Of a stretch of 64,000 nt of DNA, positions 16,429 to 39,891 are shown one piece after another. This DNA comes from Escherichia coli (lineage in GTDB: Bacteria; Pseudomonadota; Gammaproteobacteria; Enterobacterales; Enterobacteriaceae): NCBI RefSeq assembly GCF_024298765.1, contig NZ_CP101210.1; one strand, written 5' to 3'. The position numbers and the translations under genes are program-made. How positions within the stretch are numbered: position 1 is the stretch's first letter; each line of letters opens with the position of its first letter. The notes under the pieces are model-generated. The model had not been told where the DNA came from. It did not search any database and worked only from the letters and a program-made list of their open reading frames with translations.

Positions 16429-17421
16429 TTACAGCTCGCTCTCTTTGTGGAATCCGTCTTTAACTACCGTGTCTTTGATGTTGTTTTTATTCACATCGAT
16501 CGGTGTCAGCAGGCGGGAGGGAACATCTTTCAGGCCATTATTCAGTGTGGTATCTGCTTTTGGTTCCTGACCATTGCCCAACTCAACGGCAATTTCTGCG
16601 GCAGTATTTGCCAACAACGTAATAGGTTTATACACCGTCATAGTTTGCGTACCGGCAGCAATACGTTTAATACCTGCGAGATCCGCATCCTGGCCGGAAA
16701 TTGCTACTTTCCCTGATAAACCTTGCGCGCTTAATGCCTGAATTGCCCCACCTGCGGTGGCATCGTTTGAGGCAACTACAGCATCAATTTTGTTATTATT
16801 GGCGGTTAGCGCGTTTTCCATAATTTTCAATGCGTTTTCCGGTAACCAGCCATCAACCCATTGGTCACCAACGACTTTAATTTTTCCAGAATCAACGTAA
16901 GGTTTTAACACTTTCATTTGTCCGGCGCGGAACAGCTTAGCGTTGTTATCTACCGGCGAGCCGCCCATCAGGAAGTAATTACCTTGCGGAACAATATCGA
17001 CCAGGGCTTTTGCCTGCAGTTCACCGACTTTTTCGTTATCGAAAGAAATATAAAAATCGATATCCGCATCGTTAATCATACGGTCGTAAGCTAATACTTT
17101 AATACCTTCTTGTTTGGCTTCTTTTACAACGTTACTTAATACCTGACCGTTATAAGGAATAATGACAAGAACATCGACACCCCGGTTAATCATGTTTTCA
17201 ATCTGCGACATTTGTGTTTCTTCATTGCCATTTGCAGACTGTACAAATACTTTCGCGCCGAGAGATTCTGCTTTTTTCACAAAAATATCTCGATCTTTTT
17301 GCCAGCGTTCAAGACGGAGATCATCAATCGCCATACCTATTTTGACTTCTTTGGCGTGTGCCGCAACGTTGGTAAGCAGAAGTGAGGTGCAAAGGGTGAG
17401 TAGAATGTTCTTTATTTTCAT
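16429..17421 (-). CDS. xylF: D-xylose ABC transporter periplasmic binding protein
   Basis: ORF trimmed to MKIKNILLTL start (330 aa) with signal peptide. Confidence 0.92.
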   Translation of the reverse strand: MKIKNILLTLCTSLLLTNVAAHAKEVKIGMAIDDLRLERWQKDRDIFVKKAESLGAKVFVQSANGNEETQMSQIENMINRGVDVLVIIPYNGQVLSNVVKEAKQEGIKVLAYDRMINDADIDFYISFDNEKVGELQAKALVDIVPQGNYFLMGGSPVDNNAKLFRAGQMKVLKPYVDSGKIKVVGDQWVDGWLPENALKIMENALTANNNKIDAVVASNDATAGGAIQALSAQGLSGKVAISGQDADLAGIKRIAAGTQTMTVYKPITLLANTAAEIAVELGNGQEPKADTTLNNGLKDVPSRLLTPIDVNKNNIKDTVVKDGFHKESEL

Positions 17422-24162: not shown

Positions 24163-26232
24163 ATGTCTGAGAAAACTTTTCTGGTGGAAATCGGCACTGA
24201 AGAGCTGCCACCAAAAGCACTGCGCAGCCTGGCTGAGTCCTTTGCTGCGAACTTTACTGCGGAGCTGGATAACGCTGGCCTCGCACACGGCACCGTTCAA
24301 TGGTTTGCTGCTCCGCGTCGTCTGGCGCTTAAAGTAGCTAACCTGGCGGAAGCGCAACCGGATCGTGAAATCGAAAAACGCGGCCCGGCGATTGCCCAGG
24401 CGTTCGACGCTGAAGGCAAACCGAGCAAAGCGGCAGAAGGCTGGGCGCGTGGTTGCGGTATTACCGTTGACCAGGCTGAGCGTCTGACTACCGATAAAGG
24501 CGAATGGCTGCTGTATCGCGCCCACGTGAAGGGCGAAAGCACTGAAGCACTGCTGCCGAATATGGTTGCGACTTCGCTGGCGAAACTGCCGATCCCGAAA
24601 CTGATGCGTTGGGGTGCAAGCGACGTGCACTTCGTGCGTCCGGTGCACACCGTGACCCTGCTGCTGGGCGACAAAGTTATTCCGGCTACCATTCTGGGCA
24701 TTCAGTCCGATCGCGTGATTCGCGGCCACCGCTTTATGGGCGAGCCGGAATTCACTATCGACAATGCTGATCAGTATCCGGAAATTCTGCGTGAGCGCGG
24801 GAAAGTCATCGCCGATTACGAAGAACGTAAGGCGAAGATTAAAGCCGATGCCGAAGAAGCGGCGCGTAAGATTGGCGGTAACGCTGACTTAAGCGAAAGC
24901 CTGTTGGAAGAAGTCGCTTCGCTGGTGGAATGGCCGGTTGTGCTGACCGCAAAATTCGAAGAGAAATTCCTCGCGGTGCCGTCTGAAGCGCTGGTTTACA
25001 CCATGAAAGGTGACCAGAAATACTTCCCGGTGTATGCGAACGACGGCAAACTGCTGCCGAACTTTATCTTCGTTGCCAACATCGAATCGAAAGATCCGCA
25101 GCAAATTATCTCTGGTAACGAGAAAGTCGTTCGTCCACGTCTGGCGGATGCCGAGTTCTTCTTCAACACCGACCGTAAAAAACGTCTGGAAGATAACCTG
25201 CCGCGCCTGCAAACCGTGCTGTTCCAGCAACAGCTGGGTACGCTGCGTGACAAGACTGACCGCATCCAGGCGCTGGCTGGCTGGATTGCTGAACAGATTG
25301 GCGCTGACGTTAACCACGCTACCCGTGCGGGCCTGCTGTCCAAGTGCGACCTGATGACCAACATGGTCTTCGAGTTCACCGACACCCAGGGCGTTATGGG
25401 GATGCACTACGCGCGTCACGATGGCGAAGCGGAAGATGTTGCCGTGGCGCTGAACGAGCAGTATCAGCCGCGCTTTGCCGGTGATGACCTGCCGTCTAAC
25501 CCGGTAGCCTGTGCGCTGGCGATTGCTGACAAGATGGATACTCTGGCGGGTATCTTCGGTATCGGCCAGCATCCGAAAGGCGACAAAGACCCGTTTGCGT
25601 TGCGTCGTGCCGCACTTGGCGTGCTGCGTATTATCGTTGAGAAGAACCTCAACCTTGATCTGCAAACGCTGACCGAAGAAGCGGTGCGTCTGTATGGCGA
25701 TAAGCTGACTAATACCAACGTAGTTGATGATGTTATCGACTTTATGCTCGGTCGCTTCCGCGCCTGGTATCAGGACGAAGGTTACACCGTTGATACCATC
25801 CAGGCGGTACTGGCGCGTCGTCCGACTCGTCCGGCAGATTTCGATGCCCGTATGAAGGCGGTATCGCACTTCCGTACTCTGGATGCGGCAGCGTCACTGG
25901 CGGCGGCAAACAAGCGTGTATCTAACATTCTGGCGAAGTCTGACGAAGTGCTGAGCGATCGCGTGAATGCTTCTACTCTGAAAGAGCCGGAAGAAATTAA
26001 ACTGGCGATGCAAGTTGTGGTGCTGCGCGACAAGCTGGAGCCGTACTTCGCTGAAGGTCGTTACCAGGACGCGCTGGTCGAACTGGCTGAATTGCGTGAA
26101 CCGGTTGATGCCTTCTTCGATAAAGTGATGGTCATGGTTGATGACAAAGAATTGCGAATCAACCGTCTTACCATGCTGGAGAAACTGCGCGAATTATTCC
26201 TGCGCGTTGCGGATATTTCGCTGTTACAGTAA
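24163..26232 (+). CDS. glyS: Glycine--tRNA ligase beta subunit
   Basis: 689-aa ORF 10 nt downstream of glyQ. Confidence 0.97.
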
Positions 26233-26246
26233 TAACGCCGTTATTA

Positions 26247-26276
26247 AAAAGCCTGCCATCTGGCAGGCTTTTTTAT
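26247..26276 (+). terminator. Rho-independent terminator of glyQS
   Basis: aaaagcctgccatctggcaggcttttttat. Confidence 0.75.
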
Positions 26277-26399
26277 CGCTAAATAATAGAGCAACCTTTA
26301 ATAATCTTCTGCTGAATAAAGATTGTCTCATATATTAATTTTATGAGATTTTTTTAGGATTATATCAAGGAGAAGAAACGAACTTATTAAGCTAGAATA

Positions 26400-26553
26400 G
26401 CTGTGGGTGCTTGAGACTGTTTGTCTCAGGTATTCACCGAAAGGCAGACAGAGAAAAGCCCCACCTGACTATAAATCAAAGTGAGGCTACCCTATGCCTG
26501 AACACCATAAGGTTAGCCTCTTACTCGTTGGAAATCAACACAGGAGGCTGGGA
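26400..26553. promoter_or_regulatory. hokA leader region (mok start and expected antisense sokA target)
   Basis: In-frame upstream ORF from 26494 and SD aggagg before hokA; Sok-like antisense expected on the opposite strand but not positioned. Confidence 0.4.
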
Positions 26554-26706
26554 ATGCCGCAGAAATATAGATTGCTTTCTTTAATAGTGATTTGTTTCAC
26601 GCTTTTATTTTTTACCTGGATGGTAAGAGATTCACTGTGTGAATTGCATATTAAACAGGGAAGTTATGAGCTGGCGGCATTTTTAGCCTGCAATTTGAAA
26701 GAGTAA
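26554..26706 (+). CDS. hokA: Hok-family type I toxin (50 aa)
   Basis: MPQKYRLLSLIVICFTLLFFTWMVRDSLCELHIKQGSYELAAFLACNLKE; single TM helix. Confidence 0.85.
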   Translation: MPQKYRLLSLIVICFTLLFFTWMVRDSLCELHIKQGSYELAAFLACNLKE

Positions 26707-26722
26707 GAGACTTTGGCGGGAA

Positions 26723-26748
26723 GTTATTCCCGCCTTTCTTACGGCGTT
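26723..26748 (+). terminator. Hairpin terminator after hokA
   Basis: ggcgggaagttattcccgcc followed by tttctt. Confidence 0.5.
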
Positions 26749-26893
26749 GCGCATTCTCATTGCACCCAAATTTATTCTTCACAAAAATAACACTAGATTC
26801 TATTACGCGATCGATTATTTATTTCCTGAAAAACAAATAAAAAAATCCCCGCCAAATGGCAGGGATCTTAGATTCTGTGCTTTTAAGCAGAGA

Positions 26894-27106
26894 TTACAGG
26901 CTGGTTACGTTACCAGCTGCCGGGCCTTTAGCGCCGCTTTCGATGGTGAAGGACACTTTCTGACCTTCGTCCAGAGATTTGTAACCATCGTTCTGGATAG
27001 CAGAGAAGTGTACGAACACGTCTTTAGAGCCATCGTCAGGAGTGATGAAGCCGAAGCCTTTGTCAGCGTTGAACCATTTTACGATACCAGTCATTTTACC
27101 GGACAT
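26894..27106 (-). CDS. cspA: Major cold-shock protein CspA
   Basis: 70-aa [24 protein letters not shown], exact CspA sequence. Confidence 0.97.
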
Positions 27107-27266
27107 AGTGTATTACCTTTAATAATTAAGTGTGCCTTTCGGCGATATGGCGTGCTTTACAGATTTTGAAGCGTTAAAGGAATGTGCACTACGAGGGGTA
27201 TCAACGATAACTCTTGAAGGGACTTGCCTTACTACACTGCTTTAATGGTCTGTACGTCAAACCGTT
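27107..27266 (-). promoter_or_regulatory. cspA long 5' UTR (cold-box / thermosensor leader)
   Basis: About 160 nt between the conserved cspA start and upstream promoter-like AT-rich sequence; known long cspA leader. Confidence 0.5.
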
Positions 27267-38462: not shown

Positions 38463-38539
<77 letters not shown>

Positions 38540-38632: not shown

Positions 38633-39037
38633 GTGATGATGACTGAGTTCAAACGCACCCAACGTGATTATCCTCTATCCTTTAAAATAGCTGTTGTTGA
38701 GCAGGTTGAAAAAGGCGAGATGACCTATAAACAGGCCCAGCAGCGGTATGGCATTCAGGGGCGCTCCACCGTTCTTGTCTGGTTACGTAAATATGGCCGG
38801 CTTGACTGGAGTCCTGGACTTCCTGACCTGGTGAAGAGGAAACTGCCTGTGACTCAGACAACTATCCCGCTCACACCCGAGCAAAGAATCAGGGAACTTG
38901 AAGCGCAGCTTGAGCTGGCGAACCAGAAAGCTGAGTTTTTTGAGTCAGTTATCAATGTCCTTAAAAATGATTACGGGGTGAGTATCGTAAAAAAGCGGCC
39001 CGGCAAGTCCTCGCGCAAAGTCCGGCCCCCAAAATAA
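38633..39037 (+). CDS. IS3-family transposase OrfA (HTH)
   Basis: 134-aa ORF with HTH region and leucine-zipper-like C-terminus; slippery A_AAA_AAG near 38986. Confidence 0.85.
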   Translation: MMMTEFKRTQRDYPLSFKIAVVEQVEKGEMTYKQAQQRYGIQGRSTVLVWLRKYGRLDWSPGLPDLVKRKLPVTQTTIPLTPEQRIRELEAQLELANQKAEFFESVINVLKNDYGVSIVKKRPGKSSRKVRPPK

Positions 39038-39039
39038 CT

Positions 39040-39891
39040 GTGACGCGTGCATGTCTGTTCCTGGGACACAGCAGACAGGCATGGTATCAGGACAACACAA
39101 GGCGCAGAAAACGGCAGGAACATCATGCTCAGGTTCTTGATTTTGTTGCCCGTGTCAGATGTCGTCAGCCCCGAATCGGTGCGCGTAAGCTGCACTATCT
39201 GCTGAACACTCAGGCCGATAAAAGGCTGAATATCGGGCGAGACCGCCTGTTTAACCTGCTCGATGAATACCGACTCCTGGTGCCAGTAAAACGGGCATAT
39301 CACAAAACTACCAACAGTCATCATCGCTTCTACCGACATCCAAACCTGCTTAAACCAGGCCCTGAACAGGTTACCGCTCTTGAACCAGAACAGGTCTGGG
39401 TCGCCGATATTACTTACCTTCCACTGCGCAATGGTACGGCCTATCTGAGTCTGGTCACCGATGCCTGCTCCAGAAAAATTATGGGCTACCATGTTGGGGA
39501 AAACCTGCAGACAGAAAATGTGGTAAAAGCGTTCAGACAGGCGCTGAGGCTGAGAAAAACGACGAGTCCCCTGGTGCATCATTCTGACAGGGGGCTGCAA
39601 TACTGTTCAGCGCTCTATCAGTCAGTTCATGAAAGAAATGGAATAACCTGTTCAATGACGGATGGTTATGACTGCTACCAGAACGCACTGGCTGAGCGAA
39701 TAAACGGTATCCTGAAAAATGAGTTTTTACTCTCGCGTCCTGCAGACCTGGCGCAGGCCCGGGAAATGGTCAAAGAGTCCGTGGCAATTTATAACCATGA
39801 GCGGCCACATCTGGCTCTGAAATACAAAACACCCGATGACGTTCATCAGGCGTTTTACAGACAGAAAAGTGTCAACGTATATCAGGACTAG
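39040..39891 (+). CDS. IS3-family transposase OrfB (DDE integrase core)
   Basis: 283-aa ORF in the -1 frame relative to orfA; rve-type catalytic residues (WVADITY, HSDRGLQY, ERING). Confidence 0.85.
   Translation: MTRACLFLGHSRQAWYQDNTRRRKRQEHHAQVLDFVARVRCRQPRIGARKLHYLLNTQADKRLNIGRDRLFNLLDEYRLLVPVKRAYHKTTNSHHRFYRHPNLLKPGPEQVTALEPEQVWVADITYLPLRNGTAYLSLVTDACSRKIMGYHVGENLQTENVVKAFRQALRLRKTTSPLVHHSDRGLQYCSALYQSVHERNGITCSMTDGYDCYQNALAERINGILKNEFLLSRPADLAQAREMVKESVAIYNHERPHLALKYKTPDDVHQAFYRQKSVNVYQD

Follow-up and report, generated by a model that had tools for sequence, protein, structure and literature searches.

Positions 26277-26770 of the DNA stretch analysed here (the window, 64,000 nucleotides of Escherichia coli sequence) are best explained as an uninterrupted hokA/mokA/sokA type I toxin-antitoxin module of the ancestral type, which is intact in sequence, encodes a toxin that is very probably competent and is most likely silent in assays of post-segregational killing (PSK) and of rifampicin-induced killing; we put the probability of this reading at about 0.85. 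The open reading frame (ORF) at the centre of the segment is the hokA orthologue of the glyS-cspA locus, given both the equivalog score of its product and its conserved neighbours. Upstream lies glyS (24163-26232, + strand, a 689-aa ORF) and downstream cspA (26894-27106, - strand, assigned by position and by a full-length match to the Rfam cspA thermoregulator, 501 bits), followed by yiaG, yiaF and ghrB, in the same order as in K-12 and E. coli C. Most RefSeq records name this cspA gene 'cspE', a naming quirk at odds with its position and with the Rfam match. The region 26100-27150 is 100% identical to that of E. coli strain 104, a chicken isolate, in whose record the same ORF is annotated as hokA (WP_001135743.1) and nothing is annotated by PGAP between glyS, hokA and cspA.

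The left edge of the hokA intergenic region is the intrinsic terminator of glyS, read from the sequence at 26250..26274 (+ strand; stem AGCCTGCC/GGCAGGCT followed by a T run). Several sub-threshold Rfam matches at 26133-26306 (STnc370, the Phe, Thr and Trp leaders and the rnk leader) were rejected as terminator look-alikes, all of them falling on the glyS terminator hairpin. Between this terminator and the hokA promoter, there is an AT-rich hairpin (26326-26355, + strand; TCTCATA...TATGAGA and seven T), which may act as a second barrier against read-through from glyS into hokA. As originally predicted, the spacing between glyS and hokA is only 321 bp, with no insertion sequence, and a blastn search with the K-12 IS150 as the query detected no IS150 DNA anywhere in the window.

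Hok is a small inner-membrane toxin. The hokA ORF of the window (26554-26706, + strand) encodes 50 aa (MPQKYRLLSLIVICFTLLFFTWMVRDSLCELHIKQGSYELAAFLACNLKE) and is preceded by the Shine-Dalgarno sequence SDhok, AGGAGG (26542-26547, + strand), 5' of the hokA ATG at 26554, so that the expectation of an intact Hok ORF with a good ribosome-binding site was confirmed. The protein matches the Pfam family HOK_GEF (PF01848) over profile positions 1-42 of 42 (81.9 bits, E = 2.4e-23) and the NCBIfam HokA equivalog NF007290 with 131.5 bits (cut-off 89). The translation contains the residues C14, T16, L28-C29-E30, E39 and C46, which match the conserved Hok positions listed in a recent preprint (bioRxiv 10.1101/2025.08.07.668861), according to which the HokA coding sequence is toxic when overexpressed and encodes both cysteines, so that no RNA editing is needed.

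The remaining elements of the module were positioned according to their collinearity with the R1-type hok/sok of pMTY1886_IncFII (L005). The Rfam family RF01794 (hok leader) was matched over its full length, model positions 1-157 of 157, with 124 bits (gathering score 59; E = 3.1e-29), and the predicted hokA mRNA leader (26405-26556, + strand) comprises the tac stem, a second hairpin and the SDmok/sokT hairpin. The inferred 5' end of the mRNA, with the tac element (GGGUGCUUGAGA; 26405..26416, + strand), coincides with the first position of the RF01794 match. Six nucleotides upstream of this end, there is a putative -10 box, TAGAAT (26393-26398, + strand), placed using the start of the RF01794 match and the collinearity with L005, where TATGAT is found 6 nt before GGCGC. 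A good, recognisable -35 box of the hokA promoter was not found, which agrees with a weak promoter. A generic sigma-70 promoter scan of 26200-26900 did not call this promoter or that of sokA; this result was not counted as absence because the well-studied sok promoter of R1 (TTGCGC-17-TATCCT) would fail the same criteria.

The mok Shine-Dalgarno sequence, SDmok, is the GAGG at 26483-26486 (+ strand), 7 nt upstream of the mok ATG, with the same spacing as in the R1-type locus. According to the ORF list and the translations, the mokA reading frame (26494-26706, + strand) has 70 codons and is in frame with hokA in the window allele; by homology, translation of mok and hok would be coupled at this locus. 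The in-frame arrangement, in which mok is read through as a 70-aa extended Hok, is found in the window, UTI89, O157:H7 and E. coli C. Strains KE21 and ST131 carry a 1-nt deletion in the GGG run before the hok ATG (window 26550-26553), which puts mok out of frame with hok and yields a 29-codon mok ending inside hok.

On the opposite strand, a putative sokA antisense unit (26448..26538, - strand) is collinear, in both promoter and RNA, with R1-type sok. Its candidate -35 box is TTGATT (plus-strand 26533-26538), separated by a 17-nt spacer from a -10 box, TAACCT (plus-strand 26510-26515), that matches the consensus at 3 of the 6 positions; compared with the R1 arrangement TTGCGC-17-TATCCT, the sequence TTGATT-17-TAACCT shares the spacer motif GTAAGAGGC. 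The SokA RNA would run from about 26503 down to about 26448 (- strand), with the start site placed by homology only, and would end at a terminator hairpin (26457-26488) followed by a UUUUCUCU tail, with a predicted folding energy of -23.9 kcal/mol. By homology, SokA is probably expressed from this locus, and later literature describes SokA as regulating hokA in E. coli C.

The predicted full-length RNA (26405-26775) has a minimum free energy (MFE) of -137.9 kcal/mol, far below that of shuffled sequences (z = -7.3). In the predicted MFE fold, 26405-26416 pairs with the fbi-like fold-back element (UCUCAUUGCACCC; 26755-26767, + strand), which is complementary to the mRNA 5' end, through GGGUGC:GCACCC and UGAGA:UCUCA (tac/fbi). 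A ucb-like box, CUCUUACUC (26518-26526, + strand), forms a 9-bp pairing with a dcb-like box, GAGUAAGAG (26701-26709, + strand), which spans the hokA stop codon, in all predicted folds, and a predicted 16-bp helix, 26545-26560 with 26674-26689, sequesters the hok SD and AUG. Trimming of the 3' end beyond fbi changes the predicted fold, and the 5' end, 26405-26412, now pairs with 26456-26462, which is the Rfam consensus stem. Also present in all folds is a terminator-like, GC-rich hairpin (GGCGGGAA/UUCCCGCC) followed by UUUCUU (26715-26734, + strand). This hairpin is homologous to an internal hairpin of the R1 hok 3' untranslated region (UTR; positions 767-788 of L005), and, together with UUUCUU, could in principle end transcription before fbi; no hairpin terminator was found directly after fbi. 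On the other strand, the small ORF ysaE (23 aa, MRNAVRKAGITSRQSLLLFQIAG) is open at 26683-26754 (- strand), overlapping the dcb-to-fbi part of the hokA 3' UTR; the K-12 annotation includes ysaE, opposite the 3' end of hokA, and the sequence-identical record of strain 104 does not list it.

As judged from the sequence, every element of a hok/sok-type module is present, the sokA unit as a candidate: the search of the leader proposed with the original prediction located the Sok-complementary region, SDmok and the candidate tac/fbi and ucb/dcb complements, in support of the description of the locus as intact. By homology with the R1 system, the elements and predicted folds of the window suggest the following mechanism, in which the start and stop of hokA transcription and the RNA processing would likewise follow the R1 pattern. 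A weak promoter, with its -10 box at 26393-26398, would produce a hokA mRNA of roughly 360 nt from near 26405. In the full-length mRNA, the tac-fbi and ucb-dcb pairings would form and the start region of hok (SD and AUG) would be sequestered, such that the RNA would be neither translated nor bound by the antisense RNA. Trimming of the 3' end would take off fbi, upon which the 5' end would form the local tac stem instead and SDmok and the Sok target would become accessible. Translation of mok (26494 onwards) would then permit Hok translation. The short, unstable SokA (- strand, about 26503 to 26448) would pair with the mok initiation region and so block the translation of Hok.

Whether such a module fires is a separate matter from its integrity, and here the proposal that the module may be functional held only in part. 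The structure is indeed intact; however, the IS-free hokA of E. coli C, which is 97% identical, is reported to be negative both for PSK and for killing induced by rifampicin (Pedersen & Gerdes 1999, cited in bioRxiv 10.1101/2025.08.07.668861). Because the near-identical E. coli C allele is reported to be silent in both assays, we predict that hokA of the window is silent as well. The behaviour of the two alleles could differ, though, considering the sequence differences at 26402-26404, the consensus SDhok and the I24V replacement.

The statement that K-12 carries IS150 between glyS and hokA proved correct. In K-12 MG1655, a 1,443-bp IS150 occupies this interval and sits inside the hokA/sokA leader; thus, K-12 is not IS-free, and the concern that it might share the identical IS-free arrangement was dispelled by the alignment. 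The left flank of the element ends at the position corresponding to window 26482 and the right flank resumes at 26522, with 39 bp (26483-26521) missing and no target-site duplication. This loss removes SDmok, the mok ATG, the sokA -10 box and the 5' half of SokA, and the hokA promoter, tac and the first 78 nt are left on the far side of IS150. Insertion of IS150 with a deletion and without a duplication is a described class ('IS150-del'), known from the LTEE (bioRxiv 10.1101/2024.06.02.596822), and the K-12 insertion at hokA fits it. In ST131 (L002) and strain W, IS150 has the reverse orientation and forms a simple insertion, with AAGTG (26479-26483) duplicated. Thus, the stretch struck by IS150 in other strains spans 26479..26521, the ST131/W type being located at 26479-26483 and the K-12 type replacing 26483-26521, and this stretch is whole in the window.

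To place the window allele within the species, 5,426 complete E. coli genomes were surveyed. A 1,051-bp query was matched over at least 80% of its length in one piece in 2,831 of the 5,426 genomes, and a 120-bp core spanning both IS150 sites was whole in 2,800 (approximately 52%). The K-12-type IS150 junction was present in 1,667 genomes (about 31%), and the ST131-type junction in at most 1,167, some of which represent plasmid hok loci, leaving, by subtraction, about 950 genomes (about 17%) with a chromosomal ST131-type insertion. Altogether, in about 48% of the E. coli genomes, including K-12, the hokA leader is broken by IS150. The majority of E. coli thus has an IS-free hokA, and the state seen in K-12 is derived. 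The rarity of the IS-free arrangement that the original prediction implied is therefore contradicted (2,800/5,426), and this arrangement has been published more than once. The IS-free hokA/sokA locus, which is carried by about half of the sequenced E. coli, is already known and was described in 1999: Pedersen & Gerdes (Mol Microbiol 32:1090), as cited in later papers, reported that the K-12 chromosome has five hok loci and that other strains carry versions free of insertion sequences. In addition, an AIEC strain has been explicitly reported to have an IS-free hokA.

IS150 is found directly 5' of SDmok, within the Sok terminator hairpin, in four settings. Two of these are the chromosomal hokA insertions, in opposite orientations and only a few bases apart. 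The third is the R1-type hok of plasmid pMHW-2 (L004, 1183-2600), where IS150 lies between ...CCACCA and CCACGAGG, with CCA duplicated. The fourth is the hokC site of REL606, reported from laboratory evolution (PMC5419217), where position 16,972 (L016) falls between ...atcaacc and CGAGG. A literature search for an IS150/hok hot-spot yielded nothing specific. The recurrence of IS150 at hok leaders suggests either that IS150 prefers this target or that selection acts to silence hok loci. Conceivably, IS-free hokA/sokA alleles are active in natural isolates and the IS150 pattern reflects selection to silence the toxin, or else IS150 has an as yet undefined sequence- or structure-specific target in the Sok terminator/SDmok region; both proposals are speculative.

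The same pattern bears on the possibility that the module in the window is fully active, such that loss of SokA upon transcription arrest or stress would lead to HokA synthesis and membrane damage, with a role, e.g., in persistence, abortive infection of phages or anti-addiction against plasmid hok. At least two IS150 insertion events at or beside the same leader site, in opposite orientations and affecting about 48% of the genomes, would fit selection against an active toxin, and IS150 entered the same site in the R1-type plasmid hok and, in laboratory evolution, in hokC (PMC5419217). The intact state of all regulatory elements, the consensus SDhok (AGGAGG, compared to AGGGGG in E. coli C) and the encoding of both cysteines by a HokA reported to be toxic on overexpression are compatible with activity as well. 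However, target-site preference explains the recurrent IS150 insertions equally well, more than half of the genomes keep the locus intact, so that any cost would not be large, and the sole IS-free hokA that was tested, that of E. coli C, reportedly showed neither PSK nor activation by rifampicin. We consider full activity unlikely.

Alignment of about 11 alleles, including those of the window and E. coli C, revealed further variation. Each of the 10 full-length alleles sampled retains an open Hok ORF and the conserved residues, with about five polymorphisms in HokA (I24V, E36G, S37N, K47N and F15C). SDhok is polymorphic, being AGGGGG in E. coli C, O157:H7 and UTI89 versus AGGAGG in the window. 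In O145:NM FWSEC0002 (L008, 486-500), TGTACTG, the first 7 nt of an IS150 end, replaces AGG of SDmok (window approximately 26483-26486), which looks like the scar of an imprecise IS150 loss; the same allele was counted in 32 complete genomes, among them further O145 strains, e.g. RM9872. In strain KV7, a 98-bp deletion (window approximately 26482-26578) takes out SDmok, mok, the sokA promoter and the first hokA codons, and PGAP still calls a 45-aa 'hokA'. The window has neither this deletion nor the O145:NM-type lesion. In strain 405, an insertion of about 394 bp (L012, 1064-1435) between the hokA 3' UTR and the cspA terminator (window approximately 26780-26843) contains a 123-aa ORF annotated by PGAP as 'yidD' (membrane protein insertion efficiency factor).

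A different possibility is that the IS-free state of the window is secondary, an ancestor having carried IS150 that was then excised or removed through recombination with an IS-free allele. Loss of IS150 does yield alleles that look IS-free, as exemplified by TGTACTG in O145:NM. However, the hokA allele of the window carries no IS scar, no duplicated target and no loss of the 39 bp, and its 26470-26530 segment is collinear with many IS-free alleles of different lineages. A secondary origin is thus highly improbable, and the specific reading of the window as an IS-excision revertant was rejected for want of a scar.

A further possibility, to our minds doubtful but deserving consideration, is that the locus is a relic in decay, which looks intact but is non-functional owing to subtle defects (e.g. 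weak promoters, a missing 3' terminator or changes in processing) and is kept only by drift and by linkage to its essential neighbours. The negative results reported for the PSK and rifampicin tests in E. coli C would be accounted for in this manner, as would the poor matches of the promoters to the consensus and the existence of several routes of inactivation in the species, namely two classes of IS150 insertions, the scar allele of 32 genomes and the 98-bp deletion of KV7. Conversely, the Hok ORF is open in 10 of 10 full-length alleles, only the KV7 deletion allele being truncated, and the RNA folds far better than the shuffled controls (z = -7.3). In addition, the predicted tac/fbi, ucb/dcb and SD-sequestering complements are kept across divergent alleles and compensated relative to R1. 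We favour the reading of the locus as an intact module that is silent in the two assays.

Elsewhere in the window, there is another insertion sequence and another set of type I toxin-antitoxin loci. The different insertion sequence noted at proK was recovered as an IS3-family element (38633-39891, + strand; orfA 134 aa, orfB 283 aa; NCBIfam transpos_IS3, 260 bits) located directly after tRNA-Pro(CGG) (38463-38539); E. coli C has no gene annotated between this tRNA and dppA. Identification of this element as IS150 was rejected, there being no blastn match and a single tblastx match with 32% identity. The segment 48270-49940 holds a tandem array of four ldr/rdl copies repeating at intervals of about 483 bp, with four Rfam rdlD matches (- strand) and four intact 35-aa Ldr ORFs (+ strand); at this locus, E. 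coli C has a single ldrD, between bcsG and yhjV.

With respect to hokA, it is K-12 that is atypical, and the wild-type hokA/sokA belongs to the E. coli majority. For annotation, the strain has a structurally complete type I module, which could be used as natural material to find out whether hok loci on chromosomes ever fire. The recurrence of IS150 at one leader position is a modest side point on the target choice of insertion sequences or on selection.

Among known systems, the closest is the locus of E. coli C (NZ_CP020543.1), which shares the glyS-hokA-cspA arrangement, the absence of an insertion sequence, the same elements and the same predicted mRNA fold, including tac/fbi. Over the glyS-cspA interval, 642 of the 661 positions are identical (97%). 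The 19 differences include TGT in the window versus CAC in E. coli C at 26402-26404, just upstream of +1, and a 2-nt difference in the 3' UTR at 26749-26750; the sole protein difference is V24 in the window versus I24 in E. coli C. In K-12 MG1655, hokA occupies the same chromosomal position, the Hok ORF is intact and the sequence is 97.5% identical from 26522 onward, with HokA differing from that of the window at I24V, E36G and K47N.

The R1 hok/sok system (parB) and its relatives, such as that of pMTY1886_IncFII (L005), have the same organisation, with hok, an overlapping mok and, as a candidate in the window, an antisense sok, and a leader of the same RF01794 family. However, the window hokA is chromosomal whereas R1 hok is plasmid-borne, and the Hok proteins are distant paralogues, HokA of the window scoring 54.7 bits on the general Hok subfamily model NF007279, under the 73-bit cut-off. 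PSK is proven for R1 and is reported to be absent for chromosomal hokA. Unlike R1, the window has mok in frame with hok and no terminator hairpin right after fbi. The predicted fold-back, ucb/dcb and SD-sequestering helices are common to the hokA of the window, the hokA of E. coli C and the R1-type hok, where the RNA pairs through GGCGCUU:AAGCGCC (tac/fbi) and CUUACC:GGUAAG (ucb/dcb), and the tac/fbi, ucb/dcb and SD-sequestering helices show compensatory differences between the window and the R1-type RNA.
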